This document shows, piece after piece, positions 1 to 23,511 of a stretch of 64,000 nucleotides of DNA. This DNA is from a virus. Numbering within the stretch: the stretch's first letter is position 1; each line of letters opens with the position of its first letter. The stretch is taken from IMG/VR virus record IMGVR_UViG_3300045988_165032. One strand, written 5' to 3'. The notes beneath the pieces are model-generated. The model was not told where the DNA came from, did not search any database, and worked only from the letters and a program-made list of their open reading frames with translations. A program made the translations under genes and the position numbers.

Positions 1-958
1 GAAATTGCGGGGATAGAATATAATCAATAAAGACTAAGTTATAATAGCGATATTATAATGGCAAGTAGTAATGTGCTTGGTATAGTAAAACGTTTATTGT
101 AGTTCCAATCCGCAGCCAAGTGTCTCACGGAGACAAAGGTTCAACGACTAGGTTTTATAACCGTAGATTTTATAATCGAAATACCCGTAGGTATTTAGGA
201 GGAATAATTATGGAAAAACAAGAAATTTGGAAAAAAATTTTAATTAACGGTCAAGAAACTTTTTATAGTGTATCTAATTATGGTAATGTGCGTAATGATT
301 CAACTAAAACCTTATTAGGAGGATCAGTTACTAATAATGGTTATCGTATAGTGCATTTACGTTATCGAATAGATAAGAATTGCTCAGTTCATAGATTGGT
401 TATGAAAGCATTTAAACCTTGTGAAGAGATGGATGAATTGCAAGTTAATCATATAGATGGAAATAAATTAAATAATAATATAGATAATTTAGAGTGGTCA
501 ACAGCATTAGAGAATATGCGTCATAGTTACACTAGTAATTTACAACAACATGAAATGAAAGAATGTCATCAATATGATTTAAGTGGCAATTACATTCAGT
601 CTTTTGTAAATGGTTATGAAGCTGCACAAAAGCTTAATTTGGATTACACTAGTATATGGAGATGTATAACAGAACAACAGCAGCATTATAAACAATATCA
701 GTTTAAATCGTATAAAAAAGATAAGATCAACTGTTGGAGTAATTCAAACAAGAAAATAGTTTATGTATATGATAATAATGGTAATTTTATTGACTCTTAT
801 AATTCACAGAAAGAGTGTGCTAAAGCTTTTGGAGTTGCACCTTCATCTATTTGCCGATATTTAAAAGGTATTCGTAAATTAAAAGGTTTTGTTTTTTCTG
901 ATATTCCTTTATAAATATTTGAAGATATAGTCTGATGTATTATATTATATAATATATG
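1..958 (+). mobile_element. Group I self-splicing intron, 5' end cut by the window, carrying an HNH homing endonuclease in the P8 loop
   Basis: Conserved core elements are present. P: AATTGCGGGGA at 2-14. Q: AATCCGCAGCCAAG at 107-120. R: GGTTCAACGACTAGG at 138-152. S: GAAGATATAGTCTGA at 921-935. R and S give the P7 pairing ACUA/UAGU. A terminal G lies at 958, immediately before an exon that starts KTTIATKF. Confidence 0.6.
210..914 (+). CDS. HNH homing endonuclease (HNH_3 plus NUMOD/IENR1 DNA-binding repeats), intron-encoded
   Basis: ATG at 210 is preceded by an AGGAGG RBS at 197-202. HNH motif HRLVMKAF...NHIDGNKLNNNIDNLEW. C-terminal NUMOD-like helix-turn-helix. The ORF-track start at 120 is a GTG that overlaps the intron R element. 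Confidence 0.8.
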   Translation: MEKQEIWKKILINGQETFYSVSNYGNVRNDSTKTLLGGSVTNNGYRIVHLRYRIDKNCSVHRLVMKAFKPCEEMDELQVNHIDGNKLNNNIDNLEWSTALENMRHSYTSNLQQHEMKECHQYDLSGNYIQSFVNGYEAAQKLNLDYTSIWRCITEQQQHYKQYQFKSYKKDKINCWSNSNKKIVYVYDNNGNFIDSYNSQKECAKAFGVAPSSICRYLKGIRKLKGFVFSDIPL

Positions 959-1897
959 AAAACGACAATCGCAACCAAATTTCCACGCCACTTGTTGCTG
1001 GCTTTTGAGAAAGGATACAACGCGATTCCTGGAGCAATGGCTCAGCCAATTAATACTTGGGCGGAATTTAGAAAAGTGCTGAGACAATTAAAAGATGAAA
1101 AAGTAAAAGAACAGTTTGAAACGATTATTCTGGATACAGCAGATATCGCATATGACTTGTGTGAAAAGTATATTTGTGCCAATGCAAAAAGACCAGATGG
1201 CGGCTTTGGGGTGGATTCTGTTAGTGATATTCCTTTTGGGAAAGGGTATACTCTAGTCGCCAAAGAATATGATGAATGTTTACGTTCTATTATTCAAATG
1301 GATTACGGTTTAGTTTTAATTAGTCACTCAGTAGATAAAACTTTTAAAGATGAGCAAGGTCAAGAGTATAATCAGATCGTTCCTACCTTAGGAAATAAAC
1401 CTAGAGCGATTGTATCTCGAATGTGCGATATTATAGGCTACTCTCGTAGTATTCAAGATAAAGAAGGTAAAACTTCAACTAAATTATTTATGCGTGGAAC
1501 GCCAAGATATATTGCAGGCTCTCGTTTTAAATATACTCCAGATTACATTGATTTTAATTATCAAAGCTTAGTTGATGCTATTGGCATGGCTATTGATAAA
1601 CAAATGGAAGAAGATGGAAGTGAGTATTTTACAGACGAAAGATCAAACTTATATAAAGACACAAGAGCGGAATTAGATTTTGATGAATTATTGAATAGTT
1701 TCAATACTATTGTAAATGATTTAATCATGCAAAAATCTAATGAGGAATTTAAAGAATATTGGCAGCCTAGAATCGTTCAAATTACAGATAGATATTTAGG
1801 AAAAGGTATGAAAGTTAGTCAATGTTCAAGAGATCAAGTTGAGGCTTTAGATTTAATTGTTACTGACTTGAAAGAATTAGTAAAAAGTGTGGATTAG
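959..1897 (+). CDS. AAA_24/Sak4-like ATPase, 3' exon only (5' exon lies upstream of the window)
   Basis: The exon begins KTTIATKFP, the second half of a Walker A GxxGxGKT(T) motif. Downstream AAA_24-like blocks: TIILDTADIAYDL, GLVLISHSVDK, VPTLGNKPRAIVSRMCDIIGY. Confidence 0.55.
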   Translation, partial: KTTIATKFPRHLLLAFEKGYNAIPGAMAQPINTWAEFRKVLRQLKDEKVKEQFETIILDTADIAYDLCEKYICANAKRPDGGFGVDSVSDIPFGKGYTLVAKEYDECLRSIIQMDYGLVLISHSVDKTFKDEQGQEYNQIVPTLGNKPRAIVSRMCDIIGYSRSIQDKEGKTSTKLFMRGTPRYIAGSRFKYTPDYIDFNYQSLVDAIGMAIDKQMEEDGSEYFTDERSNLYKDTRAELDFDELLNSFNTIVNDLIMQKSNEEFKEYWQPRIVQITDRYLGKGMKVSQCSRDQVEALDLIVTDLKELVKSVD

Positions 1898-1910
1898 TCC
1901 ACACTTTTTT
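1887..1910 (+). terminator. Rho-independent terminator (GTGTGGA-TTAG-TCCACAC followed by a T run)
   Basis: 7-bp stem plus T6 directly after the stop codon of the ATPase exon. Confidence 0.5.
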
Positions 1911-1937
1911 GATATTTATTAAAAAATATGTTATAAT
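1909..1937 (+). promoter_or_regulatory. Sigma-A-type promoter: TTGATA, 17-nt spacer, TGTTATAAT (extended -10)
   Basis: -35 at 1909-1914, spacer 17 nt, -10 TATAAT at 1932-1937 with an upstream TG. The same architecture recurs at 8750-8778 and 20053-20081. Confidence 0.45.
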
Positions 1938-1963
1938 ATAATAAAAGAATTAAGGAGTTTTAA

Positions 1964-2479
1964 ATGGCTCATTTAGTAACGTGCGTTTATTGTAAAAAAC
2001 GTTTTGATAGAGACAAAATAGACACAACTCAAATTTCCGCAAGGAGATATGCACATAAAGAATGTGCGGAAAAGAATCAAAAAGAAAAAAGCCAGGAAGA
2101 GCAAGACTTAGAAAAATTAGAGCAATATATTATGAAACTATTTGATGAACCTTATATTAATGCTAGAATTAAAAAACAAATTAAAGATTATAAAGCTATG
2201 TATAATTATACTTATAGTGGAATGTTAAAATCTTTGATTTGGTTTTATGAAATTAAAGGAAATTCAATAGAAAAAGCGAATGGCGGAATTGGTATTATCC
2301 CTTTTATATACAAGGATGCTTTACAATATTATTATAGCTTGTATTTAGCGAAATTATCAAATGAAAATAAGAATATTGAAGAATATAAACCTAAAATAAA
2401 ATATATAGAAATCACCCCCCCTTCTGCGATTCGAAAAATGAAAAGGCTATTTAATTTAGACAGTAAGGAGGAAGAATGA
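1964..2479 (+). CDS. Hypothetical zinc-finger protein (CxxC...HxxC), possible helicase-associated factor
   Basis: ORF with an AAGGAG RBS. N-terminal CVYCKK...HKEC. Sits immediately upstream of the dnaB-like gene. Confidence 0.45.
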   Translation: MAHLVTCVYCKKRFDRDKIDTTQISARRYAHKECAEKNQKEKSQEEQDLEKLEQYIMKLFDEPYINARIKKQIKDYKAMYNYTYSGMLKSLIWFYEIKGNSIEKANGGIGIIPFIYKDALQYYYSLYLAKLSNENKNIEEYKPKIKYIEITPPSAIRKMKRLFNLDSKEEE

Positions 2480-2480
2480 A

Positions 2481-3511
2481 GTGGGAAAATATGTAGACAT
2501 TCCATCTATTATTCAAGTTATTGGAGGGATTTATTTAAACCCTAATTTACTAGATGAAGATGGAAAATATTTTTTTAATGAAGAGGATTTTACAGAAGAA
2601 TTTCATAAAATTCTTTTTGGGTCTATATATAATTTACATGAATTAGGTGCTAAAGAAATTTCTATCAATGCGATAGAAGATTATTTAGAGCAAAGACCAA
2701 AAAGTTATGCAGTTTATAAAGCTAATAAGGGACAAGAATATCTTCAAAAATTAAGTAAATCAGTACAATTAGCTGCTTTTGATTTTTATTATAGCAGGAT
2801 GAAAAAGATGACTTTGCTAAGAATGTATCAAAATATAGGAATGGATTTATCATGGTTATATGATATAGACAATATCATGGATGTTAAGAAGAAGCAGGCT
2901 CAAGAGGATTGGTTAGATAATTCATCTATTGAAGATATTGCAGAGATCATTGACAAAAAAATTACTGATATAAGATTAAAGTATGTAGATGATGCTTCTA
3001 ATGGTGCGGAGCTGGCAGGTAATGGAGCATTAGAGCTACTCGAACGCTTAAAAGAGACACCTGAAGCAGGATATCCTCTATTCGGACCCTTGATAAATAC
3101 TGTAACTAGAGGGGCTAGATTAAAGAAATTTTATTTGCGATCAGCCGCAACAGGAGTAGGAAAAACACGAGCGATGATTGCGGATGCATGTTCTATTGCG
3201 TGCGATGAAATTTATGATTCTAAAGAAGGAAAATGGATTCCAAATGGAACTAAAGAACCAACAATCTTTATTTCAACAGAGCAAGAAAAAGATGAAATTC
3301 AAACTATGATAATTGCTTTTTTATCTGACGTAGATGAAGAGCATATTATTTCTGGAGAGTATTATGCTGGAGAATGGGAGCGTGTTATTTACGCAGCAAA
3401 TCTTTTAAAACAATGCCCTCTATATATAGAACAATTACCAGATTTTTCGCTAAAGGATATCGAGAATACTATTAAGCGTGGAGTTAGAGAGTATAATATT
3501 AGGTATGTGTT
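2481..3511 (+). CDS. dnaB: Replicative DnaB-like helicase, 5' exon (3' boundary approximate)
   Basis: GTG start with an AGGAGG RBS. DnaB N-terminal domain. Walker A SAATGVGKT. The exon ends near ...NIRYVF just before the DYxxx (Walker B/H2) motif. The listed ORF to 3578 reads through into the intron. Confidence 0.6.
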
Positions 3512-4526
3512 CAACCCTTTTGTGGGTTTAAAGGACTGTGTAAAACTTTTCCAGCTTACCACTGGGGTTATCGTTTAAGATAGCTAACGGGGAACCCTAA
3601 GTAGAAATATATGGGAATCCCGTGGGAAACTTTGGACAGAAATAATCAAATTTATTTTGACTACTTTCATACACAAATAGAAAATTGTGTGGAAGGAGTT
3701 AAAAATGGCAATAGTTTACTGTTATACTAATCAAATCAATAATAAAAAATATATAGGACAAACAATTAACCCAGAGCAAAGAAAAAATCAGCATCGAAGT
3801 TCTGCTTTCAATCCTTCTGATAAAGATTATGAATCATTAATTCATAGAGCTTTTAGAAAATATGGTTATGAAAATTTTACTTATGAAGTATTAGCTGAAA
3901 TTTATGACAATGATTTTGACTTACTTAATAAGCTAGAACAATATTATATTTTAAAATTTAACTCAAAAGTTCCTAATGGCTATAATGTTTTAGAAGGTGG
4001 AAAGAATTGTGCGAGACCGCATAAGGAAGAGACTAAAGAAAAAATGAGATGGTCTCATGCAGCTCTTACGAAAGAAGAAGTTATCTCTTTGCGAATTGCT
4101 TATAAAGAACAAAAAAGTCCAACTAAAATATTTAAAGAAAAATACGAAGGAAGAATAGAATGGCAATCTTTTTTAAATATCTGGACTGGAAAAAGGTATG
4201 CTACTGTAATGCCAGAAGTTTTTAAAACAAATGATGGTACGGGAAGAAAAACCAAACTTACTGTTGAAATTGTAAAAGCAATTAGGGAAGAAAGAGAAAA
4301 AACAGGGAAAAGCTATGATAAAATAGCAAAACAATATGGAATCTCAAAAGCAACTGTTGCAGATTTGATTAAAAGAAGAACTTGGAAAAATGTCTAAAGA
4401 ACCTGTATCGACTATCCTCGGATCGGAGGAGTAGGACTACTATTGGTACGTAGTTCGAAATGGTTTCCTATGACTTTTGTCGTAGTAAGAGATAGTCAAC
4501 GCCTCTTGAAAGAGAGGACTTACGTG
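3509..4526 (+). mobile_element. Group I intron (td-like IA2) carrying a GIY-YIG homing endonuclease in the P6 loop; boundaries within about 5 nt
   Basis: 5' core CTAACGGGGAACCCTAAGTAGA...GGGAATCCCGTGGGAAAC resembles the T4 td intron P3-P4-P5 region. 3' core TGTATCGACTATCC...GTAAGAGATAGTCAACGCCTCTTGAAAGAGAGGAC gives R/S and the P9 hairpin. It separates two halves of one DnaB reading frame. Confidence 0.55.
3705..4397 (+). CDS. GIY-YIG homing endonuclease (I-TevI-like) with C-terminal NUMOD/IENR1 domain
   Basis: IVYCYTN...KYIGQT...R...E...N motifs. GGAAGGAG RBS before the ATG at 3705. Embedded in the intron. Confidence 0.8.
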   Translation: MAIVYCYTNQINNKKYIGQTINPEQRKNQHRSSAFNPSDKDYESLIHRAFRKYGYENFTYEVLAEIYDNDFDLLNKLEQYYILKFNSKVPNGYNVLEGGKNCARPHKEETKEKMRWSHAALTKEEVISLRIAYKEQKSPTKIFKEKYEGRIEWQSFLNIWTGKRYATVMPEVFKTNDGTGRKTKLTVEIVKAIREEREKTGKSYDKIAKQYGISKATVADLIKRRTWKNV

Positions 4527-5046
4527 CTTCGATTACATCCATACAAGTATGAAAATTTTAAGTGAAGTCTCATCTAAGACTGGAGTAAGAGGATTAAGAG
4601 AAGATAATATCCTTTTTATGATTTCAATTCGCTTAAAAGATATGTGTAACCAGTATGGTATTTTTATTATGACAGCAACTCAGTTAAATAGTAGTTATAT
4701 AACAGCTCAACAATATGATCAGAATCTGTTAAGAGGAGCTAAATCTATTGCGGATAAAATTGATTGTGGTATGATTATGCTTGAAGTTGATAATGATGAT
4801 CGTAACGCTTTAGAAAATGTTTTAGCTCAAGGAGGATTTGAGACGCCTCAAATTAAAATATCTATTTATAAAAATCGTAGAGGTAGATATAAAGGAATTT
4901 TATTGTGGTGTAAGGCGAATAGAGGTACTTGTAAAATTATTCCTATGTTTGCAACTAATTACCAGTATGAGTTGATTCCTATTGAAGATTTAAAAATCAC
5001 TGTTAAGCCAAAAGAAGAAAAAAAGACTGATGTTAGTGCTTTTTAA
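4527..5046 (+). CDS. dnaB: DnaB-like helicase, 3' exon (5' boundary approximate)
   Basis: The in-frame sequence upstream of the listed ATG (from about 4527) encodes FDYIHTSMKIL, the DYLQL-type motif. ISIRLKDMCNQYGIFIMTATQLN matches DnaB ISRSLKxLAKELNVPVIALSQLNR. Confidence 0.6.
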
Positions 5047-5075
5047 TTTAAAAAGAAAGAAAGGAATAAAGAGTC

Positions 5076-6212
5076 TTGTATAAGTATGATAAAGACGAAT
5101 TAAAATTAAATCTTTCAATAGAGCAAGTTTTTGATCTGGTCGCGGAATTGGGTGGAGAGCCACGAATGGAAAGTGGTTTTTTTATTTCTAAAACAATATG
5201 TCATAATCATGCTGGAGAAGGCTCTTATAAATTATATTATTATGACAATACTAAATTATTTAGATGCTATACTGATTGTGGGACTAGCTTTGATATATAT
5301 GAACTTGTAAGAAAGATAAAAAATAATAGTAAGGACTTAAAAAGTTATTATAACAAAGAAGGAAAAGTTTGTTATAGAGAATGGGAACTTTTTGATGCTG
5401 TTGAATTTGTTGCAATATATTATGGATATTCACCAAAAACATTTGATTTTCAAAAGACTCAAGAGAAATTAAAAGATTGGGAAGTTCTTAATAATTATGA
5501 GCAAATAAACAAAGATGAACAAGAGCAAAGAGTAGAATTAAGAATTTTTGATAATAAAATTTTACAGTATTTACCTCGTCCGCGAATAATAACTTGGGAA
5601 CAAGAGGGAATAAAAAAGGAGGTAATGGATCATAGGGGCATCGCCTATGATCCTAAAAACCAAGGTATAGTAATTCCGCATTATGATATAAATAATCAAT
5701 TAGTTGGAATAAGAGAAAGAACTTTAATTAAAGAAGAAGAAAATTTTGGAAAATATCGACCAGCTATTCTAAATGGAGTTATGTATAACCACCCTCTAGG
5801 CTTTAACCTATATAATCTTAATAATAGTAAAGATAATATAAAAATAATTAAAAAAGTTATTGTTTATGAAGGAGAAAAATCTTGTCTTTTATATGCTAGC
5901 TATTTTGGAGAAGAAAATGACATTAGTGTAGCTTGTTGCGGAAGTTCATTAATTACTTATCAAGTTAAATTATTATTATCTTTAGGGGTAAAAGAAATTA
6001 TTGTTGCTTTTGATAAACAGTTTATTACTATTGGTGATGATGAATGGAAGCGTTGGACAAAGAAATTAACAGATATTCATAATAAGTATGGTGCTTATAC
6101 TCAAATATCTTTTATGTTTGATAGATGGGACCTATTGCAATATAAATCAAGCCCAATAGATGAAGGAAAAGATACTTTTATGGAACTATTTAAAAGGAGA
6201 ATTATATTATGA
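5076..6212 (+). CDS. dnaG: DnaG-like DNA primase (CHC2 zinc finger plus TOPRIM)
   Basis: CHNHAGEGSYKLYYYDNTKLFRCYTDCGTSFDIYELV zinc-binding region. VIVYEGEKS TOPRIM acidic motif. Apparent TTG start. Confidence 0.7.
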   Translation: MYKYDKDELKLNLSIEQVFDLVAELGGEPRMESGFFISKTICHNHAGEGSYKLYYYDNTKLFRCYTDCGTSFDIYELVRKIKNNSKDLKSYYNKEGKVCYREWELFDAVEFVAIYYGYSPKTFDFQKTQEKLKDWEVLNNYEQINKDEQEQRVELRIFDNKILQYLPRPRIITWEQEGIKKEVMDHRGIAYDPKNQGIVIPHYDINNQLVGIRERTLIKEEENFGKYRPAILNGVMYNHPLGFNLYNLNNSKDNIKIIKKVIVYEGEKSCLLYASYFGEENDISVACCGSSLITYQVKLLLSLGVKEIIVAFDKQFITIGDDEWKRWTKKLTDIHNKYGAYTQISFMFDRWDLLQYKSSPIDEGKDTFMELFKRRIIL

Positions 6213-6881: not shown

Positions 6882-8677
6882 AATACCAGTTAATTAAACC
6901 TGTTAATTTAAAATATTCCGCGATAGAGCAAATTTTAACAAATCGTGGAATCAAACATGAAGATATTAAACATTATTTGAATACTACTGATAATGACATT
7001 TATTCGCCTTTAGAGTTAGGAGAAAAGGTATTAAAAGAAGGCGTTGCTGTACTTTTAAAAGCAATTTATAATAATACAAAAACTTTAATCATAGTAGATT
7101 CTGACTGTGATGGTTTTACCAGCAGTGCTGTTTTAATTAACTTTTTATATGACCATTTTCCGCGATATATTCTTTCAAAAGTAGAATGGTTAGTTCATAG
7201 CGGAAAACAACATGGATTAAAGGATTGTAAAGATATAATTCTTGAAAAAGACTATTCTTTAGTTATTTGCCCAGATTCTTCAAGTAACAATTTTGAAGAA
7301 CATAAAATGTTAAACGAGAAAGGAATAGATGTTTTAGTTCTAGATCATCATAAAGCTGATCATATAAGTGAAAATGCTATTGTTATAAATAATCAATTAA
7401 GTGACTATCCAAATAAACAGCTATCTGGTGTTGGTATTGTATGGCAGTTTTGCAGATATATAGATTTAATTATGAAAACCAATTATGCCGAAGATTATGT
7501 AGATTTAGTTGCATTAGGTCTAATGGCAGATATGATGAGTATGACTTCTTTTGAGACTAGGCATTTAATTACAAAGGGATTTAAAAATGAAAATATCCAG
7601 AATCCTTTTATCGTATATATAGCAGATAGAAATAGTTATTCATTAGGAAAAAATATCACTCCTATGGGAGCAGCGTTTTACATTGCACCTTTTGTTAATG
7701 CTATTGCTAGAAGCGGTACTTTAGAAGAAAAACATATTGTTTTTAAATCAATGCTTAAATTTGAAGCTTCAAAAAAAATACCTTCTACAAAAAGGGGACA
7801 TAAAGAAGGAGAAGAAGAGCCATTAGTGCTTCAAGCAATTAGAACTGCAATCAATGTTAAAAATCGACAGACAAAAGCTCAAGATGTAGGAATGACACTC
7901 TTAGAAGATAAAATTGAAAAGAAGCATTTATTAGATCACAAAGTGCTATTGTTTTTACTTAAACCAGGGGAGATTAATTCTAATATAGCTGGATTAATCG
8001 CGAATAAGTTTATGTCAAAGTATCAAAGACCTTGTTGCATTTTAACTCAAGTTGAAGATGAAAATAAGATTTTTTATCAAGGTTCTGCGAGAGGATATGA
8101 GAAAGGTGGAGTTGCTAATTTTAAAAATTTGTGTGAATCCGCACCAGGGGTAGAGTTTGCAGAAGGACATCCAAACGCCTTTGGTTTGAGTTTATATCTA
8201 GGTCAAAAAGGCTATGATGAAGAAGTTTGGGGTGAATCTATACTTTTGTTTTTAGATTATACAGATGAAGTTCTTAAATTCATGTCGTCTGAACCAATTT
8301 ATTTAGTAGATTATATTTATGAAGGAAATCAAGTTAAAGCAGAAAATATTCTTGATATAGCTTCATTAGATGATCTTTGGGGAAAAGATATGGAAGAACC
8401 TTTAGTTGCGGTTAAAGGTTTAACAATTACAAAAGACATGATAACTTTAATGTCACCAGATAAAAAACCTACTTTAAAAATAACTTTACCAAATAATATT
8501 TCTTTAATTAAATTCAATTCTTCTCAAGAGGAATACGAAAAATTATTTTCAGAGGATGGATATGTAGCTATTGATTTGGTAGGTAAATGTAATAAGAATG
8601 AATGGCAAGGATATGTAAATCCTCAAATTTTTATTGAAGATTATGAAATTGTTGATTCTAGTCAATATTACTTTTAA
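6878..8677 (+). CDS. DHH/DHHA1 family phosphoesterase, RecJ-like ssDNA exonuclease
   Basis: Motifs IVDSDCDGFTS, VLVLDHHKADH and GHPNAFG (DHHA1). Confidence 0.65.
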   Translation: MKYQLIKPVNLKYSAIEQILTNRGIKHEDIKHYLNTTDNDIYSPLELGEKVLKEGVAVLLKAIYNNTKTLIIVDSDCDGFTSSAVLINFLYDHFPRYILSKVEWLVHSGKQHGLKDCKDIILEKDYSLVICPDSSSNNFEEHKMLNEKGIDVLVLDHHKADHISENAIVINNQLSDYPNKQLSGVGIVWQFCRYIDLIMKTNYAEDYVDLVALGLMADMMSMTSFETRHLITKGFKNENIQNPFIVYIADRNSYSLGKNITPMGAAFYIAPFVNAIARSGTLEEKHIVFKSMLKFEASKKIPSTKRGHKEGEEEPLVLQAIRTAINVKNRQTKAQDVGMTLLEDKIEKKHLLDHKVLLFLLKPGEINSNIAGLIANKFMSKYQRPCCILTQVEDENKIFYQGSARGYEKGGVANFKNLCESAPGVEFAEGHPNAFGLSLYLGQKGYDEEVWGESILLFLDYTDEVLKFMSSEPIYLVDYIYEGNQVKAENILDIASLDDLWGKDMEEPLVAVKGLTITKDMITLMSPDKKPTLKITLPNNISLIKFNSSQEEYEKLFSEDGYVAIDLVGKCNKNEWQGYVNPQIFIEDYEIVDSSQYYF

Positions 8678-10237: not shown

Positions 10238-12759
10238 ATGAGTAATCGTTTTGAAACTCATTCTCATACTGAGTATAGTAATCTTCGTTTATTAGATTGT
10301 ATTAATAGACCAAAAGATTTAATTCAAAGAGCGATTGATTTAGGCTTATCTGGAATTGCTATTACAGACCATGATTGTCTATCTTCTCATATGGAAATAA
10401 ATATATATGCTCAGGAATTAAAAGAGAAAAATCCTAACTTTAAAATTGCATTAGGGAATGAAATTTATTTATGTCCATCAAGAGATAAAGGACAAAAATA
10501 TTTTCATTTTATTTTAATTGCTAAAAATAAAATTGGATATAGAGCATTAAAAGAATTATCTTCAAGAGCTTGGATGAATTCTTTTTTTGATAGAGGCATG
10601 GAAAGAGTAGTTACTTTATATGACGACTTAGCGGAAATTGTAAAAAAATATCCAAATAGTTTAATTGCAACAACAGCATGCTTGGGTGGAGAATTGAGCA
10701 CTCTAACTAAACAATTAATTTTAGCAGAACAAACAAAAGATGCTGAATCCGTGGAAGATGCTCATAACAGAATAGTTAATTTTATTTTATGGAATAAGTC
10801 TTTATTTGGACAAGATTTCTATATTGAGTGTGCTCCAGGACAAAGTAAAGATCAAGTAATGGTAAATAAGAGACTTTTATCTATTGCTAGATGTTTTAAT
10901 ATAAAAATGGTACTTGGCACAGATGCTCATTATTTAAAAAAAGAAGATAGATTTGTTCATAAATCTTACTTAAATTCTAAGGGTGGAGAACGAGAAGTTG
11001 ATGAGTTTTATGAATATAGTTACTTGCAATCAGAAGAAGAAATAATTGAAAATTTAAAGCCTTCTGAGTTAAATTATGAAGAATTATGTAATAATTCTTT
11101 AGAAATTTATTCTAAAATTGAAAATTATAATTTAAAACATAAACAAACAATTCCAAAAGTTAAAGTTAGAGATTACCCTAAAGATAACTCTTTAAAGGAA
11201 TATCCTACTTTACATAAATTATTATTAAGTGATGATATTCAAGACAGATATTGGGTTAATACTTGTTTGCAAAAACTCCAAGAAATAAATAAATATAACA
11301 ATACTTATTTATCTCGATTAGAAGAAGAAGCTGATATTAAAGATACTATTAGTAAAAAACTTGAAACTAATATGTTTAGTTATCCTAATACTTTACAACA
11401 TTATGTTGATTTATTTTGGGATTGCGGAAGTATGGTAGGTGCAGGAAGAGGAAGTTCTTGCTCTGGATTAAATCATTACTTAATGGGAATTACTCAACTA
11501 GATCCGATTGAATGGGAGCTTCCTTTCTGGAGATATTTAAATAAAGAGCGTATAGAGCTTGGAGATATAGATTTAGATTTAAGTCCAAGTAAAAGACCTT
11601 TAATTTTAAAGAAAATAAAGGAAGAACGCGGAAAAAATTTTAAAAAAGATATTGATGTTTTATCTCGAAAAAATTTAGGATGTACGTTGATAGCCACTTT
11701 TGGAACTGAAGGTACTCGATCAACTATTTTAACCGCTTGTCGCGGATATAGAAGTGAAGAGTATCCAGACGGAATTGATGTTGACACTGCTCAATTTTTA
11801 TCTTCTTTAATTCCAAGTGAAAGAGGTTTTTTATGGTCTTTATCAGATGCCATTAATGGTAACCCAGATAAAGATAGAAAGCCTATTAAGATGTTTACTA
11901 ATGAGGTAGAAAAATATCCTGGCTTATTAGATATTATGATTGCTATTGAAGGGTTAGTAAACAAAAGGAGTTCTCATGCTTCTGGAGTAATTCTTTTTGA
12001 TGAAGACCCATATGAATTTGGATGTTTTATGCGGACTCCTAAAGGAGAAATTATTACGCAATGGGATCTTCATATGTGCGAAGCAGCAGGTATGACAAAA
12101 TATGACTTCTTAGTAACTGAAGTCCAGGATAAATTAGCAGAAACAATTAAATTACTACAGGCTAATAATGAAATTGAATCAGATTTATCTTTAAAAGAAG
12201 TGTATGAAAAATATTTTCATCCAAGTGTTTTACCTATCGAAGATAAAAAATGTTGGAAAGCACTGCAAAACAACTCAGTTTTAAATATTTTTCAATTTGA
12301 TAGCGATGTAGGCAGTCAGGCTGCAAAAAAAATTAAGCCAGCCTCAATAATTGAAATGTCAGATGCTAATGGATTAATGAGACTTATGACTAGTGAAAAA
12401 GGTCAAGAAACGCCAATGGAAAAATATGTAAGATATAAAAAAAATATTGATCTTTGGTATCAAGAAATGAGAAGAGAGGGGTTATCTCCTCAAGAGATGA
12501 AAACATTAGAACCTTATTTCTTAAAGTCTTATGGTGTTCCGCCAAGTCAAGAACAATTAATGAGTATGTTAATGGATAAGGATATTTGCGGTTTTAAGTT
12601 ATCTGAAGCCAACACCGCGAGAAAAATTGTTGGTAAAAAACAAATGAGTAAAATTCCAGAATTGAAAAAGAAGGTTATTGAACAAGCTAAAAGAAAAGAA
12701 CTCGGAGACTATGTATGGAAATATGGCATAGGTCCGCAGATGGGATATAGCTTTAGCAT
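10238..12759 (+). CDS. dnaE: DNA polymerase III alpha (DnaE-type), 5' exon
   Basis: N-terminal PHP domain HSHTEYSNLRLLDCI...IAITDHDCL. Polymerase core. Exon ends ...GYSFSI. Last exon nucleotide is U12759. Confidence 0.7.
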
Positions 12760-13985
12760 TGTGTGAATGGTGCTTACACACTTAACCACTTATCAGTGGG
12801 GTAATTAAAACATTTACATATTTGGCAAATATGGTTTTAATTGCTAACGAGGGTTAAATCTCGTGACAAATTTCTTTAATAGAGGTATAGTATTTTTCAG
12901 TTATACATGAGAATAGTAAAACAATGTATAAGGAGAATATTATGTACTATATTTATAAATTTACAAATAAAACAAATGGTAAAATTTATATCGGACAAAC
13001 TAATAATGTTCAAAAAAGAAAAAATGGACATAAAAGTGAGTCTTTTAATGAAAAAGCTTCTGGCTATAATTTGCCATTTCACGCAGCCATAAGAAAATAT
13101 GGTTGGGATAATTTTAATTTTGATATTCTTGAAGAGATTGCTGATGGAGAATCTCAAGAATATATTGACGAAAGAGAAATTTATTTTATTCAATATTATC
13201 ATTCTTTAAAAGATGAAAATGGATATAATATTACTTTAGGCGGACAAGGATATAAAAGAAAACCTTTAACGTATGAAGAAAAATTAAACCGATCTAAACT
13301 CTTTAAAAAAGAAGAAATTATTGATATTCAAAATCGTCTAATGAATGATGAAGAATATGATGATATTGAAAAAATTTATTTTCCTAAGTTAAAAAGAACG
13401 TTTTTAGTTAATATAAATACTGGAACAAATTATTTTAATGAAGAGTTTGATTATCCTTTAAAGAAAAATTCTAAAAGCCGCTTTTCTCAAAAAGAAATTA
13501 GAGAAATAAAAGATAGAATTAAAAGCGGAGAAAAATATAAAACAATTCAAGAAGATTTTGGAATTAAATCAGCTGGATTTTTATCTATGATAAATACAGG
13601 AAAATATTTTTATAGTGATAAGGATAACTACCCTCTTTGTGATAAAGGTGGTAATAAAGCTAAAAATGAAATCTGGATTCAAGGTATTATAAAAGATATT
13701 TTAGAAACAGATTTATCTTTAAAAGATATCGCAAAAAAATGGAATAAAAGCTATGCAACAATTAAAAATATTAACGCAGGACGTTCTCATAAAAAAGAAA
13801 AATATAAATACCCTCTTAGAGATAATAAATAAATCTATTAAAAGAAAAATGTTGTATCGACTATCCCTGGTTAGACGGGGAGTACTGAAACTATTGATAC
13901 GTTTTGGGAAATAGTGTGCAGACAAGAGAAAAGCCAAAATCTCACTACAACGTCTGTAAAAAATAGTCAGTAATTTTAAATTATG
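12760..13985 (+). mobile_element. Group I intron (paralogous to the dnaB intron) carrying a GIY-YIG homing endonuclease
   Basis: P1: exon AGCAU (12755-12759) pairs with GUGCU (12770-12774), with a U.G pair at the splice site. 3' core TGTATCGACTATCCCTGG matches the dnaB intron. Terminal G at 13985. Excision joins GYSFSI to IHALAYSFIGFQT, restoring the DnaE F-N-K-S-H-A-x-A-Y block length. Confidence 0.65.
12942..13832 (+). CDS. GIY-YIG homing endonuclease (I-TevI-like) with NUMOD/IENR1 repeats
   Basis: YYIYKFTNKTNGKIYIGQT...R...E...N. AGGAG RBS. Related to the dnaB-intron endonuclease. Confidence 0.8.
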   Translation: MYYIYKFTNKTNGKIYIGQTNNVQKRKNGHKSESFNEKASGYNLPFHAAIRKYGWDNFNFDILEEIADGESQEYIDEREIYFIQYYHSLKDENGYNITLGGQGYKRKPLTYEEKLNRSKLFKKEEIIDIQNRLMNDEEYDDIEKIYFPKLKRTFLVNINTGTNYFNEEFDYPLKKNSKSRFSQKEIREIKDRIKSGEKYKTIQEDFGIKSAGFLSMINTGKYFYSDKDNYPLCDKGGNKAKNEIWIQGIIKDILETDLSLKDIAKKWNKSYATIKNINAGRSHKKEKYKYPLRDNK

Positions 13986-15387
13986 CATACATGCCCTGGC
14001 TTACTCTTTCATAGGATTTCAAACTATATACATAGCCACAAGATGGAATCCTATCTATTGGAATACCGCGTGTTTAATTGTAAATAGTGGAGCCTTAGAA
14101 GAAGATAATATTGAAAATGAAGAAGAAACAGAAGAAAGTAAAAAGAAAGAAAAATCTACGGATTATAGTAAAATAGCTAAGGCTATTGGAGATATTTTAT
14201 CAAGAGGAATAAAAATTTCTTTAGTTGATATAAATAAATCTGACTATAGCTTTAAGCCAGATGCTGAAAACAACGAAATTCTTTTTGGAATGAAAGCATT
14301 GAGTAATGTAGGTGCACCAATTATTGAGCAGATTTTTTCTGGTAGACCATATAAAAGCATTAAAGACTTTATGATAAGATGTCCTTTAAATAAATCTGCA
14401 ATGATTTCCTTAATAAAGAGCGGAGCTTTTGATAAACTGGAATTAGAATGGGCAAAAGAATTAAATGTTGAACCAAGAGTGCTTGTAATGATATATTATC
14501 TGTCTGTTGTTAGTGAACCAAAAAAGAAATTAACGCTACAAAACTTTAATGGTTTAATTCAAAAAGACTTAATTCCACCTTCTTTAGATAGTATGAAAAG
14601 ATTATTTTTCTTTAATAAGTATCTAAAAACTGAGAAAAAAGTTGGAAAATATTATGTCTTTGATGATGCTTGTGAAAAATTCTACAATCAAAGATACGAT
14701 ATGGAAGACCTTGAAGTGATAAACGGATGCGTTTGTATTTTACAAAACAAATGGGATAAAAAGTATCAAAAAGGCATGGATAGAGCTAGAGATTGGCTTA
14801 AAGAGAATCAACAGACAGTATTAAAAGAATTTAATGAGGCTTTATTTCTTGACTCTTGGAATAAATATGCTAAAGGAAATATTTCCGCGTGGGAAATGGA
14901 AAGCTTATGTTTTTATTATCATCCACATGAATTAATAAATATTGATACTTTAAAGTATGGAATTTCAGATTTTTCTAAATTACCCGAAGAGCCTGTTGTA
15001 GATTATTTTTTCAAAAGAAATGGAAAAGAAATCCCTATTTATAAGACTTATAAAATCATTGGCACTGTAATCAGTAAAAATGATGCTCGTTCTTCAATAT
15101 CATTATTAACAACTTCTGGAGTTGTTAATGTAAAATTTACAAAAGATTACTTTGCTATGTTTGGGAGACAAATTTCTGAAAAGCAAGAAGATGGAACTAA
15201 AAAAGTTATGGAAAAAGGCTGGTTTCAAAGAGGAACAAAAGTAATGTGTACTGGGTTTAGGCGTGGAGATACATTTCAGACTAAATCGTATAAACATACC
15301 CCTACCCATCAGCTCTACAAGATTATTGACGTCAATGGTTCAGATATGAAACTAGAGCATGTTAGATATGGTATGGAAGGAGAATAA
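13986..15387 (+). CDS. dnaE: DNA polymerase III alpha (DnaE-type), 3' exon
   Basis: Upstream in-frame extension HALAYSFIGFQTIYIATRWNPIYW matches the DnaE HAxAYxLxxYQTAYLKAHYP block. HhH region ALSNVGAPIIEQIF. C-terminal OB-like region. Confidence 0.7.
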
Positions 15388-18616: not shown

Positions 18617-18634
18617 ATAAAAATATATTATAAT
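18606..18634 (+). promoter_or_regulatory. Candidate promoter: TTGACT, 17-nt spacer, TATAAT
   Basis: Overlaps the end of nrdG, upstream of a cluster of small ORFs. Confidence 0.3.
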
Positions 18635-18651
18635 AAATAAGGAGTAAAAAA

Positions 18652-19020: not shown

Positions 19021-19021
19021 T

Positions 19022-19279: not shown

Positions 19280-19290
19280 GGAGAATTATA

Positions 19291-19985: not shown

Positions 19986-19990
19986 ATATT

Positions 19991-20040
19991 AAGTAGAGTA
20001 TATAATAATATATATATTATTATATACTCTACTTTTTTTG
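19991..20040 (+). terminator. Strong rho-independent terminator (about 21-bp AT-rich perfect palindrome plus T7)
   Basis: AAGTAGAGTATATAATAATATAT / ATATTATTATATACTCTACTT followed by TTTTTTT. Confidence 0.6.
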
Positions 20041-20052
20041 TTTAAATAAAAT

Positions 20053-20081
20053 TTGACAGAGTTAGAATAATATGTTATAAT
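20053..20081 (+). promoter_or_regulatory. Consensus promoter: TTGACA, 17-nt spacer, TGTTATAAT
   Basis: Perfect -35 and -10 hexamers with extended TG, 28 nt upstream of the ruvC-like gene. Confidence 0.55.
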
Positions 20082-20109
20082 TTAGATAGAAAAATAAAGG
20101 AGATTAAAT

Positions 20110-20604: not shown

Positions 20605-20609
20605 AAAAA

Positions 20610-20633
20610 TATGGGAGCTAAATAGCTCCCATT
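20610..20633. terminator. Bidirectional terminator between the convergent modules (GGGAGCTA-AA-TAGCTCCC)
   Basis: 8-bp GC-containing stem flanked by an A run on one side and a T-rich tract on the other. Confidence 0.55.
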
Positions 20634-21177
20634 ATTTATATCTACGACTAAGGTAATCAGAGATTTCACAGATACATTGATAATTATAATCATGTTCTTC
20701 TAAGATGTCCATTAATGTTTCTATATGCTTTATCTCTTGCATGACATCTTCTATCATTTTATGCACGATCTTTCTATCTTCTACATTTCTTTTCCATTGT
20801 AATAGATGTTCTAAAACTTCGCTTTCCCAATCAGCGTATTGTTTCATAGATTCTTTCACTAAAGAAATAATTTTTTCTTCAGATAAATCTTTATATAAAT
20901 CCTCATTTTCTTCCCAACGGTCAATACTTTTTGTTTTTAAGATTGGAAATTTTTTATATTTCTCAATATATTTATGTTTTAAAAGTTCAAGAGTTTCAGT
21001 CTCTTCTTGTGATTGGTGATGATGTAAAGCCTTAAATCCAGGTAATTTTAATAAATCATATAAGTCTGTTTCAAATAAATGAAACATTACTCCTTCTAAA
21101 TTTTGCTCCATCATCTTAATCATTATATCTTCGCTCGTATTTTCCACTATTGTTTTTGGAGATACTATTTCTGCCAT
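20632..21177 (-). CDS. Hypothetical acidic His-rich protein (181 aa)
   Basis: ORF with GGAGG RBS. Last gene of the minus-strand terminal operon. Confidence 0.45.
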   Translation of the reverse strand: MAEIVSPKTIVENTSEDIMIKMMEQNLEGVMFHLFETDLYDLLKLPGFKALHHHQSQEETETLELLKHKYIEKYKKFPILKTKSIDRWEENEDLYKDLSEEKIISLVKESMKQYADWESEVLEHLLQWKRNVEDRKIVHKMIEDVMQEIKHIETLMDILEEHDYNYQCICEISDYLSRRYK

Positions 21178-21192
21178 AATATAGCCTCCTTA

Positions 21193-21642
21193 TTAGCATA
21201 ATTTAACTACAGTTATATTAGTATTAGAATAAATAGCTCCTACGCCAGTATTTAATACAGTCAAAGTAGTAGTATTATCAATAGAAGCACAAGAAGGTAA
21301 AACTTTGACAATAGTCGAAAAAGACATTCCATTAAAGTCTGTTACTGCCGCGGAATTAGAGCTACTTTTTGCCCCTTCTACATTAACTCCATTCTTCTGT
21401 AATTGCATAGTAACAGTTCCCGCGGTTCCAGATTCTGCGGCGGTAGCATCTACACTGATTAAATAGACTCCTGGTTTCTTTAGTTGAATTGAAGAGGAAC
21501 CAGCAACATAATTGATAGAGCATCCATTTAAAATATTGATATTAGTAAATGGTAAAAGTTGTCCTGTTGTTAAGGTTTCAGTCGCAGTAGATACAGCATT
21601 TAATACGCTTTTTTGATATGCTTTGTTTATTGTATATCCCAT
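21193..21642 (-). CDS. C1q/TNF-like jelly-roll domain protein (BclA C-terminal-domain-like)
   Basis: KPGVYLISVDATA...TVTMQLQKNGVNV...FSTIVKV...TLTVLN matches the C1q/BclA-CTD hydrophobic pattern. No collagen-like repeats. Confidence 0.4.
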   Translation of the reverse strand: MGYTINKAYQKSVLNAVSTATETLTTGQLLPFTNINILNGCSINYVAGSSSIQLKKPGVYLISVDATAAESGTAGTVTMQLQKNGVNVEGAKSSSNSAAVTDFNGMSFSTIVKVLPSCASIDNTTTLTVLNTGVGAIYSNTNITVVKLC

Positions 21643-21659
21643 ATTTTATATTTCCTTTC

Positions 21660-21678
21660 TTGGGCGGAGAATCTCCGC
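21660..21678. other. GC-rich hairpin GGGCGGAG-AAT-CTCCGCCC between two minus-strand genes
   Basis: 8-bp perfect stem, unusual in this AT-rich genome. No T run follows on the minus strand. Confidence 0.4.
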
Positions 21679-21694
21679 CCGTATTCTATTAAGA

Positions 21695-22011
21695 TTAATT
21701 ACAGCCGCATCCATTATAAATTCTGTTTCCTAATAAGGAAGCTTCATATGGAGAGCAAGTAATATAAGCTGGTTGTGGATAAGGTCTTAATGTTCCAATT
21801 AAGCTAGCACTTTGAGCTTGCTGACTTAGTTGGAAGTTTGCAGTCATAAGATCTCTATCTCTATCCGCTAATTTATCTCTTAAATCCTGCATTGTATTAG
21901 CATTGATTAACGCTCTTGTAGTATTTCCATCTTCACGAATTGCGTTTACAATATCGCAAGTATTACGAGAGTTTTCATAGCGAACCGCGTCTATGTTGCG
22001 ATTCGTTTCAC
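21695..22011 (-). CDS. 3' exon of an intron-split late gene (Cys-rich C-terminus ...NGCGCN)
   Basis: The listed 65-aa ORF extends 39 codons upstream without a stop, as far as the predicted 3' splice site at 22012. Confidence 0.45.
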
Positions 22012-23078
22012 CATTTTGTTATCATAAAGGCTCTTTATCCTCTATTTCTTATAGTTTCCTATAAGTTCAGACTATATCTTCATCCTATTTATATAGGAGT
22101 TCGGCACTCGTGTTGGTATTATTGTTTGTTGTAACTCAACCATTAGTCGTTGAACCTTCTAATTACTTTTATCAACTTTCATTAGCTTGGCTGCTGATTA
22201 ACATATTTACAAATATGACCTTTATAAGGTCTATTGGCTTTTAAAGCTTTGCATAAAGGAGATGTATCCTTTACTCCTAAAGCATTAGCAGCTTCTCTCA
22301 AAGAAGAATATTCAATTCCATCTATTAAAACTGCTTTTGAACTTGTTTTATGTATAGTATATTTTTTTTGTTCTTCATCTATATATTTACATGGATTCCC
22401 TTTAGTATCATATCCTCTTTTACACCAATTTGATATAGTATTTTCCCATACTCCAATTTCTTTAGCTGCATCTATTACTCCGTCATATCTAATTCCATTA
22501 ATAAGAACAGGACGTTTTTTCTTGTCAGCAACTTTTTGAGCTATTTTAGAATCTTTCATGGGATTTTTTTCTGACATTCTTTTTCTTTGAAAATCAGTTT
22601 TCATTGGGTTATACTCTGACATATATTGTCTCATTTCTTCTGTCCATTCTTTAGAGTATCCTCCATATCCACCATTAATTAAATTACATTTGCAAAATCC
22701 TTGTTGTCGATATTGTTTAGTTAATTCTGCTTCATATTTAAAAGCTTCTTCCTCTGTTTCAAAAAATTTAACTATTCTTACATCAACTTTATTTTTTGAA
22801 ATATAATCTTTAAAATACTTATTCCTATCTGAAATATTTTTATATCTATTATTACATCCTTTTCCGACATAAAATATTTCATTAGTTTCTACATTATACC
22901 ATTCATATACATAAAATTTATTCATTTTAATTCTCCTTATTTTCTTGATATTAAATATTAAAATAAAGGAGAATAATCTATCTTTCTTTGACCAATTTTT
23001 CTATTTGCAAACTTAGTATCCCAGCAATTCACCGAATATTTTACTAATAGTTACCTATTAGGCTGCCATGATATGTTT
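22012..23078 (-). mobile_element. Group I intron on the minus strand (same core family as intron 1) with a GIY-YIG endonuclease in the P6 region
   Basis: On the minus strand: P1 exon GCUGCU|, then loop AAACAUAUCAU, then IGS GGCAGC (U.G at the splice site). P: GAATTGCTGGGA (rc 23017-23031). Q: AATCAGCAGCCAAG (rc 22186-22200). R: GGTTCAACGACTA (rc 22143-22157). S: GAAGATATAGTCTGA (rc 22066-22080). P9 hairpin CTTATAG-GAAA-CTATAAG. Terminal G at 22012. P10 is UCAU paired with GUGA. Confidence 0.6.
22182..22925 (-). CDS. GIY-YIG family homing endonuclease (variant VYEW...YVGKG) with two NUMOD/IENR1-like helix-turn-helix repeats
   Basis: FYVYEWYNVETNEIFYVGKG...R...E(EAFKYEAEL)...N(LINGG). C-terminal IRYDGVIDAAKEIGV and IEYSSLREAANALGV repeats. 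AAGGAG RBS. The 3' end overlaps the intron Q element. Confidence 0.75.
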   Translation of the reverse strand: MNKFYVYEWYNVETNEIFYVGKGCNNRYKNISDRNKYFKDYISKNKVDVRIVKFFETEEEAFKYEAELTKQYRQQGFCKCNLINGGYGGYSKEWTEEMRQYMSEYNPMKTDFQRKRMSEKNPMKDSKIAQKVADKKKRPVLINGIRYDGVIDAAKEIGVWENTISNWCKRGYDTKGNPCKYIDEEQKKYTIHKTSSKAVLIDGIEYSSLREAANALGVKDTSPLCKALKANRPYKGHICKYVNQQPS

Positions 23079-23511
23079 AGCAGCATTGCTGATCCGCAAA
23101 TTTGGCATCATTAATTGCAGATTGGATTCCTGCAAATCCTAAGCTCATATTACTATTAACTCCACCAAATCCTTGACAAAGTTCTCTACCAACAGTATTA
23201 AAACCGTTTAACATAGTTGTGTTTTGAGCGTAGAATCCATCACAAAGTCCATTAGATAATCCTTGTAATTGTCTTTGAACGTCGCTGTTGTTAAATCCTT
23301 CAAATAAATCTGCTCTTGTTAAAGCTCCTTGAACTGCGGCACTATCTACTCCACTTCTATTACCAAAGAAGCCATTTCCGCCCCAAGCTAACAAGAAAAA
23401 TAAGAAAAATACCCAAATCCAAGTACCATTTCCGCCGAATCCAGTGCAATCTCCATCTTTTGCTAAAGCCATAGCATCAGCGATACTTAATCCATCATTC
23501 ATCATTCCCAT
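23079..23511 (-). CDS. 5' exon of the intron-split late gene: Gly-rich single-TM protein (ORF ends QQCC then the T of TAA)
   Basis: RBS GGAGAT. TM segment WIWVFFLFFLLAW flanked by Gly-rich tracts. The stop codon TAA begins exactly at the predicted 5' splice site, so it is removed by splicing. Confidence 0.5.

Follow-up and report, generated by a model that had tools for sequence, protein, structure and literature searches.

Group I introns with genes for GIY-YIG or HNH homing endonucleases are well known from the replication genes of phages, as in T4 (td, with I-TevI), SPO1 (I-HmuI), and Twort. The stretch of DNA analyzed here, IMG/VR virus record IMGVR_UViG_3300045988_165032 (64,000 nucleotides [nt]; the window), comes from an uncultured phage and very probably holds four mobile, self-splicing group I introns of IA-type subgroup, each with a homing endonuclease gene. 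The insertions measure 993 nt (intron 1), 1015 nt (intron 2), 1226 nt (intron 3), and 1067 nt (intron 4). Three interrupt replication genes, namely those for a Sak4-like ATPase (in Walker A), DnaB (Walker B), and DnaE (GYxFxxxHA motif), and the fourth interrupts a gene of the structural region that encodes a phrog_16490 protein on the minus strand. In a map of the open reading frames (ORFs) of positions 1 to 26000, these four genes are broken by endonuclease-like ORFs. As introns of this kind are already well known, the find is essentially ordinary; the four are new examples, in host genes and an uncultured lineage for which no description was found. The literature on introns in phage DnaE and in Clostridium perfringens phages likewise yielded no description of these sites.

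Staphylococcus phage Twort, with introns of subgroup IA2, has a high intron density, as does the window. It differs in that the order P2-P3-J3/4 is canonical in its introns and that several of them have no endonuclease gene; the motif of their 3′ domain, ...GAGUAGGG-P7.2-CGAAAUGG-P3′..., is also present in introns 1 to 3. Several introns per genome, as here, are found in SPO1/SP82 and the Bastillevirinae, all phages of Firmicutes, and the endonuclease of intron 1 shares the I-HmuI architecture (NUMOD4, HNH_3, NUMOD1) with the DNA polymerase introns of Bacillus phages SPO1/SP82. The window differs from these in its host genes and in its uncultured lineage, and its phage is known from sequence alone. 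Up to 8 introns per Bastillevirinae genome have been reported, with splicing shown for 8 of the 9 genes tested (PMC11878797, published in 2025), and a prediction made earlier for positions 1 to 23511 of the window (the original prediction), which likened the intron density there to that of Twort/SPO1-like phages, was therefore reasonable.

Introns 2 and 3 resemble the T4 td intron (I-TevI, IA2) in the J3/4-P4 sequence (UAACGGGG...AAUCCCGU), in P7 (CGACUAU/AUAGUC), in the P7.1 and P7.2 helices between P7 and P3′, in the GIY-YIG ORF in the P6 loop, and in their insertion into a conserved motif of a DNA metabolism gene. The comparison was checked against a td-like intron found by Rfam (locus L025, 6369-6595). 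In td and this td-like reference, two hairpins precede P3 and the P3 5′ strand abuts J3/4, whereas in introns 2 and 3 two conserved hairpins separate the P3 5′ strand from J3/4. The Rfam model RF00028 (Intron_gpI) gives td-like introns 85 bits and the family of introns 2 and 3 at most 36 bits.

Inteins of DnaE and DnaB are parasitic elements in the same conserved motifs as the introns described here, but they are translated in frame and removed at the protein level, whereas those of the window fold as RNA and are interrupted by stop codons. In cyanobacteria, the split intein of DnaE lies just before CFNKSH, about 4 codons from the site of intron 3. The conservation of intron and intein insertion sites is analyzed in PMC2814812.

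Filled and empty sites in near-identical phages

The window was compared with three IMG/VR phage contigs that share 95 to 98% nucleotide identity with it in the flanking genes. All four introns are absent from contig _162193 (loci L125, L183, and L263). Sites 1, 2, and 4 were looked at in the other two: contig _151959 (L124, L022, and L264) carries introns 1 and 2 but not intron 4, and contig _163175 (L126 and L265) has introns 1, 2, and 4, so that they carry at least two and at least three introns, respectively. The window has all four, and the same introns recur in the related contigs (L022, L124, L126, and L265). A mobile intron is marked by genomes that are nearly the same but differ in whether they carry it at a given precise site, and this pattern was found here, with breakpoints that coincide with the predicted splice junctions. 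The original prediction had placed four introns with endonucleases in positions 1 to 23511 and had suggested a comparison with intron-less homologous phages; all four are present there, and empty sites matching the predicted junctions were found for each.

The boundaries of each intron are exact. Intron 1 is filled in L124 and empty in L125; it is inserted between ...AGTGGT and AAAACG, and its copy in the window is identical to that of L124 at 955 of 958 nt. Empty sites of intron 2 were found at L125, L127, L133, and L136, and the L125 site reads YVFFDY, which places the intron at 3512..4526. A start at 3509 was rejected; it gave YVFDY, with a one-residue gap against Taq DnaB. Single-nucleotide polymorphisms in the exons cluster within ∼20 nt of the intron 2 site and may reflect co-conversion or target-site divergence. 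The L183 deletion at intron 3 is 1226 nt long, with a 1-nt ambiguity that the terminal-G rule settled in favor of 12760..13985, and at intron 4 the deletion in both L263 and L264 is exactly 23078..22012. The predicted junctions are ...CCTAAGAGTGGT/AAAACGACAATC for intron 1 (in short, ...AGAGTGGT/AAAACGAC), ...AGGTATGTGTT/CTTCGATTACAT for intron 2 (...TATGTGTT/CTTCGATT), and ...GCTTTAGCAT/CATACATGCCCT for intron 3 (...TTAGCAT/CATACATG), all on the plus strand, and ...CAATGCTGCT/GTGAAACGAATC for intron 4 (...TGCTGCT/GTGAAACG) on the minus strand. All four upstream exons end in a U paired to a G of the guide sequence, and all four introns end in G (G958, G4526, G13985, and G22012), a last base that is missing from each empty site.

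The RNAs of all four introns are predicted to splice. The bases at the exon end would pair with the internal guide sequence (P1), with a U.G wobble at the splice site; external guanosine bound in P7 would attack the 5′ splice site, and the freed exon end would attack the bond after the terminal G, joining the exons and restoring the four reading frames. The endonuclease genes, with their own ribosome-binding sites, sit in peripheral loops (P8 for intron 1, P6 for both intron 2 and intron 3, and P5 for intron 4). When related phages infect the same cell, the endonuclease would cut the allele that has no intron, and the intron would be copied in during repair. Such homing is the explanation proposed for near-identical phages that differ by the presence or absence of the four elements. 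None of the four endonuclease ORFs is truncated, and an AGGAG ribosome-binding site precedes each of them.

In L125, a further ∼1 kb (7033-8070, corresponding to 5006-5077 of the window) lies between DnaB and a primase gene and is absent from the window; it holds two small ORFs (71 and 111 amino acids [aa]) with no obvious endonuclease motif.

Introns 1 and 4 and their host genes

The window starts at position 36 of intron 1, and positions 1..958 (plus strand) hold the 3′ 958 nt of its 993. Exon 1, of 31 codons with the end ...GEPKSG, and the first 35 nt of the intron precede the window. The insertion of the original prediction is present, with the correction that only nt 36 to 993 are inside the window and exon 1 is outside it. 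Exon 2 of the Sak4-like (AAA_24) ATPase (959..1897, plus strand) starts with KTTIATKF and so supplies the latter half of Walker A (GEPKSG/KTT); its Pfam AAA_24 match begins at profile position 15, the first ∼14 positions being absent, and in ∼30 homologous loci Walker A is uninterrupted. Restored ORFs that are contiguous in relatives bear out the prediction that the introns interrupt the Sak4-like ATPase, DnaB, and DnaE genes.

The P, Q, R, and S elements of intron 1, located by motif matching, are at 1-16, 107-117, 139-150, and 922-932. The P4 5′ strand is at 5-12, the P7.1/P7.2 hairpins (GGUU/AACC and GAUU/AAUC) are at ∼151-185, and the P3′ strand CCCGU is at 183-187. P1, seen in L124, is GUGGU/GCCAC, and the order P1-P2-P3-J3/4-P4 is apparently canonical. 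P8 encloses an ORF of 234 aa (210..914, plus strand) for an I-HmuI-like HNH homing endonuclease with its own AGGAGG ribosome-binding site. This ORF matched Pfam NUMOD4, HNH_3, NUMOD1, and I-HmuI_NUMOD-like, all four above the cutoff, and phrog_59, an HNH endonuclease (E = 3e-44).

Intron 4 (22012..23078, minus strand) splits the gene for the phrog_16490 protein, of unknown function, into exon 1 (23079..23511, minus strand), which ends ...FADQQCC, and exon 2 (21695..22011, minus strand), which begins (C)ETNRNIDAVRYEN... and has no in-frame start codon before 21892. In L263, L264, Dulem virus 36, and further phages the protein is unbroken, as found by tblastn and by a phrog_16490 match in one stretch; together with the precise deletion in relatives, this agrees with the prediction that a fourth intron splits a late gene on the minus strand. 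The helices of intron 4 follow the canonical order, UUCGGU-GAA-UUGCUGGG. P1 pairs GCUGCU (23084-23079) with GGCAGC (23067-23062), and P2 follows at 23061-23044; P3 pairs UUCGGU (23036-23031) with GCCGAA (22105-22100), and P4 pairs 23027-23020 with Q (22199-22189). R is at 22155-22144 and S at 22080-22070, followed by P9, P9.1, and the terminal G at 22012; a single hairpin occupies the position of P7.1/P7.2. A GIY-YIG-type homing endonuclease ORF of 247 aa (22182..22925, minus strand) fills the P5 loop, its last codons overlapping the Q element (the P4 3′ strand). It matched phrog_314, a homing endonuclease (E = 2e-19), with traces of NUMOD1 and of the I-TevI DNA-binding region, and is unrelated to the enzymes of introns 2 and 3 beyond the motif.

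Both introns contain P, Q, R, and S elements and align to RF00028. GTTCAACGACTA and AAGATATAGTC each matched exactly at introns 1 and 4, and P4 shows one compensatory difference between them (GCGG/CCGC versus GCUG/CAGC). The elements are thus nearly identical, and the endonuclease families differ (HNH versus GIY-YIG), as originally noted.

The closest known counterpart of intron 4 is in C. perfringens phage CPQ4 (MZ401006, ∼2105-3130, minus strand), which has an intron of the same ribozyme family in the same gene and at the same insertion point (...CC/CETNRNIDAVRYEN). It carries a homologous GIY-YIG ORF and is 72% identical to intron 4 over 958 nt; P1 is GCUGUU/GACAGC in CPQ4 and GCUGCU/GGCAGC in intron 4, and P2, P6, and P9 also contain compensatory differences. 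CPQ4 is, however, a 40-kb C. perfringens siphovirus of another lineage than the window phage. In its record (locus L001, 1800-3463, minus strand), the 5′ fragment and the endonuclease are separate hypothetical proteins, and the 3′ exon is unannotated.

An unannotated insertion was also seen in a head-region gene of Clostridium phage phiCP39-O (EU588980; locus L003, ∼2501-3424 on the minus strand of the locus, with an ORF at 2682-3332) and, of the same type, in phiCP26F, phiCP9O, vB_CpeP_PMQ04, and Clostridioides phage CD1801. The core of the phiCP39-O insertion differs from that of intron 4, but over its last ∼54 nt (P9/P9.1 and on through the terminal G) the insertion has 94% identity with positions 22015-22068 of the window; it resembles a further group I intron, one with the same 3′-terminal module as intron 4.

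The Walker A site of the Sak4-like gene contains other insertions as well. At least three that are unrelated to intron 1 lie at this site or ∼3 nt from it (L128-L130, L174, L182, L142, L143, L181, and L165), adjoining the KTT codons upstream; the end of one is ...TTAATAACTAATTGGGT, and a AAGATATAGTC element of its own is present in another. The site thus seems to have been invaded repeatedly and independently. In L141 and L155, ∼15 nt upstream of the junction, an in-frame TAG (YG*PKSG) replaces a Glu codon present in all other relatives, and these phages may recode TAG. Intron 1 itself ends in ATG (956-958), in frame with exon 2 and with no Shine-Dalgarno sequence upstream; unspliced RNA could in principle yield an N-truncated ATPase that lacks half of Walker A.

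Introns 2 and 3 and their host genes

DnaB exon 1 (2481..3511, plus strand) ends ...RYVF plus the partial codon TT, matches Pfam DnaB and DnaB_C (10-134), and is colinear with the intron-less DnaB of L125. Intron 2 (3512..4526, plus strand; 1015 nt), supported by its empty sites and by the family model described below, is followed by exon 2 (4527..5046, plus strand), which begins (F)FDYIHTSMKIL... and has an ATG 7 codons past the junction. The predicted spliced DnaB is identical to that of L125 at 490 of 512 positions without a gap, and it aligns through the junction to the IIDYLQ (Walker B) region of Taq DnaB, of solved structure.

In the 5′ part of intron 2 are the guide (3533-3542), the P3 5′ strand (3543-3547), hairpin A (3551-3565), and hairpin B (3566-3585). 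The core has J3/4 UAA at 3585-3587 and P4 at 3588-3592 with 3618-3622, and the 3′ part has P7 at 4410-4415 with 4492-4497, P3′ at 4462-4466, and the terminal G at 4526. P1 consists of GUU/C paired with GGAC, a bulge, and then UAUGU/GUGUA; a P1a hairpin beside it covaries. The P6 loop holds a GIY-YIG homing endonuclease ORF of 230 aa with a C-terminal helix-turn-helix (HTH) (3705..4397, plus strand; Pfam GIY-YIG, 36.6 bits; phrog_7168 homing endonuclease, E = 2e-34).

Exon 1 of DnaE, the polymerase III alpha subunit (10238..12759, plus strand), ends ...GYSFSI and matches the Pfam PHP, DNA_pol3_alpha, and finger domains. Intron 3 (12760..13985, plus strand; 1226 nt), supported by the empty site of L183 and by the family model, is followed by exon 2 (13986..15387, plus strand), which begins (I)IHALAYSFIGFQ... 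and has no in-frame start codon before 14290. Over 205 aa, the product predicted from splicing matches the L183 DnaE with 100% identity, 113 phage records are contiguous across the junction, and the product aligns through it to the NYGFNKSHAAAYS motif of solved structures (PDB).

The 5′ part of intron 3 comprises the guide (12770-12774), the P3 5′ strand CACACU (12777-12782), hairpin A (12786-12799), and a long hairpin B (∼12801-12844). Its core has UAA at 12845-12847 and P4 at 12848-12852 with 12860-12863, and its 3′ part has P7 at 13859-13864 with 13963-13968, P3′ AGUGUG at 13913-13918, and the terminal G at 13985. P1 is AGCAU/GUGCU here and AGCGU/GCGCU at the same DnaE site in L012, L045, L094, and L104, a covariation of exon and guide. 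The P6 loop holds a GIY-YIG homing endonuclease ORF of 296 aa (12942..13832, plus strand; Pfam GIY-YIG, 41.8 bits; phrog_7168, E = 1e-40). The ORFs of introns 2 and 3 both contain HTH modules, and their enzymes are related, as had been claimed (32% identity; E = 3e-26).

The claim that the two introns share core motifs held in part. The 14-mer TGTATCGACTATCC occurs in both and nowhere else in the window (4405 and 13854); with 2 mismatches allowed there were 3 matches against 0.64 expected by chance. CTAACGGGGAACC occurs in intron 2 only, and its counterpart in intron 3 is CTAACGAGGG, a compensatory P4 variant.

The family of introns 2 and 3

At least 120 stretches of viral contigs were retrieved with the shared 14-mer. 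A complete 3′ core was present in 53 of 125 matches, mostly with a matching 5′ core. As introns 2 and 3 are poorly scored by RF00028, independent evidence was needed, and a family model (R1) was built from 23 members, with the window and all same-site relatives left out. Across the 64 kb, R1 matched intron 2 at 4401-4524 (116 bits; E = 2.4e-25) and intron 3 at 13850-13989 (78.2 bits; E = 2e-16), with no further significant match; the next, of 15 bits, was to intron 4, in its 3′ domain.

In the 23 members, the 3′ domain has a well-supported fold, P7 around P7.1, P7.2, and P8, followed by P9. Pairing was found in 90.3% of cells, compared with 67.7% in shuffles and 35 to 42% when the partners were slid. 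Compensatory changes were seen in 23 of 30 pairs. P7.1 and P7.2, the extra helices of IA2 introns, are 90% and 98% paired, and every P7.2 pair covaries; P4 covaries between 26 G-C and 20 A-U pairs with none mixed. RNAalifold recovered hairpin A, P4, P5, P7, P7.1, P7.2, and P9 from ten sequences. In the MAFFT alignment, the registers of P3 and P8 vary from row to row, and column-wise counts therefore understate both (P8, 68% paired). In an anchored test of P3, cognate helices exceeded noncognate ones (p = 6e-16; 36 distinct helices), and none of 20000 permutations reached the observed mean; earlier tests had given p = 0.18 (RNAduplex on wide regions, no discrimination) and p = 7e-5 (a looser helix scan). 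The core helices and P7 G-binding sequences of introns 2 and 3 are intact and the same as the family consensus.

The P3 5′ strand of the family sits straight after the guide sequence, with two conserved, covarying hairpins between it and the J3/4 UAA, and its P3′ partner lies just after P7.2 and GAAA. The canonical IA2 order, in which the P3 5′ strand abuts J3/4, was not found in introns 2 and 3. The td-like IA2 label given to them originally fits the layout of P4-P6, P7, P7.1, P7.2, P8, and P9 and fails at the P3 5′ strand. That strand is also the sole exception to colinearity with the td-like intron of L025, with which the family has in common J3/4 UAA, P4, P5, P4′, P6, the CGACUAU of P7, P7.1, GAGUAG, P7.2, GAAA, P3′, P8, AGAUAGUC, and the GAAA hairpin of P9.

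Of 50,697 deposited phage genomes, only those of three cultured Enterococcus phages, EF1, EF5, and VRE9_3, contained the family, in each case unannotated; it is present in more than 45 nonredundant metagenomic phage loci. Tentatively, and with somewhat less than even confidence, introns 2 and 3 can be placed in an abundant, hitherto unmodelled structural subclass of IA group I introns. The hairpins of this subclass (loop consensus UNAUCA; stem closed by G-U...G-C) may lie at the same end of P3 as P7.1 and P7.2. The displaced-P3 architecture was not found in the literature, under "P3.1" included, although an earlier description is possible, for example in GISSD; the family motif is absent from the supplements of PMC11878797.

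Many members inserted after ...GGGU (in L025, L038, L052, L056, L061, L070, and L112) begin with AAGAGAUAGUCUGGCCC in their first ∼20 nt. The sequence of the J8/7-P7 3′ strand, AAGAGAUAGUC, is thus duplicated in their P1 loop, and this copy could pair alternatively with the P7 5′ strand.

Covariance-model searches and alternative explanations

Several results weigh against reading the four insertions as mobile, self-splicing introns. Splicing at all four junctions is a prediction from the DNA sequence. Rfam at the gathering threshold gave no match in the whole window, and no Intron_gpI match was obtained at E ≤ 10 on positions 1 to 26000. RF00028 reached only 13.6 bits on intron 2, had no match on the short stretch of intron 3, and scored an ORF-less family member (L051) at 36 bits (E = 1e-7) with all P3 pairs flagged as noncanonical. 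The P1 helix of intron 2 is weak: it has a bulge and several G.U pairs, and its exon side is the same in all relatives, leaving no variation to compare. For intron 1, exon 1 and the first 35 nt of the intron are visible in a relative only, outside the window, and the intron 4 ORF scores 22.0 bits with Pfam GIY-YIG, just under the cutoff of 22.6.

The blank whole-window scan is explained for introns 1 and 4 by endonuclease inserts and search filters that hide them. The Intron_gpI search suggested originally thus found nothing on the whole window and matched on short, ORF-free stretches only: RF00028 gave 50.7 bits on 22048-22240 of intron 4 (gathering score, 50; E = 2.6e-12) and 24.1 bits on the P4-P7 part of intron 1 (2-153; E = 2e-4). 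Scores below the threshold are attributed to the ORF inserts and, for introns 2 and 3, to the displaced P3 strand, which also accounts for the 36 bits of the ORF-less member and for the failure of all eight ORF-less members to reach the gathering score. Covariance models match all four introns, RF00028 in the case of introns 4 and 1 and the family model built without the window in that of introns 2 and 3. Endonuclease loops have been reported to break covariance-model matches, RF00028 and GISSD to underrepresent phage introns, and intron subgroup to be decoupled from nuclease family (PMC11878797). At the eight loci with ORF-less family members, Rfam at the gathering threshold matched only other introns of those contigs. 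Further canonical group I introns (Rfam, 52 to 85 bits) lie a few kilobases from family members in L018, L025, and L116, and those metagenomic phages therefore also bear several introns each.

The alternatives to mobile group I introns are together improbable, and each is contradicted by the sequence. A gene split by a free-standing endonuclease gene, with functional fragments, is an arrangement described for some T4-like phages, and the host genes here could likewise have been split into separately translated fragments with no RNA splicing. Each insertion does hold an endonuclease ORF with its own ribosome-binding site, the whole-window Rfam scans were blank, and ATG codons lie 7 codons into DnaB exon 2 and, in frame, at the close of intron 1. 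All candidate ATGs, however, lack a Shine-Dalgarno sequence, and the conserved coding sequence past the junction is start-free for 101 codons in DnaE and 40 codons in the minus-strand gene, which argues against separately translated fragments. The 200 to 350 nt around each ORF form conserved, covarying group I helices, and splits inside Walker A, Walker B, and the finger motif would leave fragments without catalytic residues, so this arrangement is very unlikely. Decayed introns or dead insertions that no longer splice, leaving the interrupted genes as pseudogenes, would be compatible with the weak P1 of intron 2, the poor RF00028 scores of introns 2 and 3, and splicing that is predicted only. 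We give this decay an equally small chance, given that the Sak4-like ATPase, DnaB, and DnaE genes are replication genes with open, conserved exons, that the core helices and P7 G-binding sequences are intact, and that the same introns, with full-length endonuclease ORFs, recur in several contigs.

Inteins are classically found in DnaE and DnaB, in the very motifs that hold the insertion sites here. Fractured genes, in which gene halves with split-intein halves flank a free-standing endonuclease and the proteins are joined by trans-splicing (PMC2677866), were therefore considered. But the frames close 2 to ∼22 codons past each junction, leaving no room for an N-intein of ∼100 aa or a C-intein of 35 aa, and split inteins are thereby excluded, save for a minimal residual probability; no intein Pfam match was obtained, and the flanks are structured RNA rather than coding sequence. 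Just as improbable is the reading of introns 2 and 3 as some other kind of structured or mobile RNA whose resemblance to group I introns is only local. No family member, with or without an ORF, reaches the RF00028 gathering score, and the P3 5′ strand is at a noncanonical position. Yet the family is colinear element by element with the td-like intron of L025 (85 bits), an ORF-less member still scores 36 bits, the U.G pair, the terminal G, and the exon-guide covariation all hold, and neither group II nor any other Rfam family matched in scans of the whole window and of positions 1 to 26000.

Remainder of the window

In the rest of the window, minus-strand structural genes are tightly packed, and no fifth insertion is evident. 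A candidate at 27732, with an S-like match (AAGAGATAGTC), was rejected as a chance match inside an uninterrupted ORF of 675 aa. Perfect A+T-rich palindromic hairpins at 19993-20032 and 24325-24387, between convergent or adjacent genes, gave spurious Rfam matches to microRNA families and are probably terminators. The phage has a G+C content of 30.5%, its nearest DnaE relatives are ∼40% identical, and a scan of GTDB genomes gave a single match, a 25-kb contig in a metagenome-assembled genome of uncultured Bacilli.

Implications

Where such introns go unrecognized, gene callers break DnaB, DnaE, the Sak4-like ATPase, and the structural-region gene into fragments and "hypothetical proteins," of which the CPQ4 record is an example. 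The sites in Walker A, Walker B, and the polymerase III alpha finger motif support a convergence of introns and inteins on the same motifs. Near-identical phages with zero to four introns offer a natural system in which to study homing, co-conversion, and the fitness cost of introns. Introns 2 and 3 reveal a large family missed by the standard Rfam model. If they do form a structural subclass, RF00028 cannot align its P3, and Rfam-based annotation would miss such introns systematically, even those with no ORF. The finding supports the argument that the diversity of phage group I introns exceeds current subgroup models (PMC11878797).

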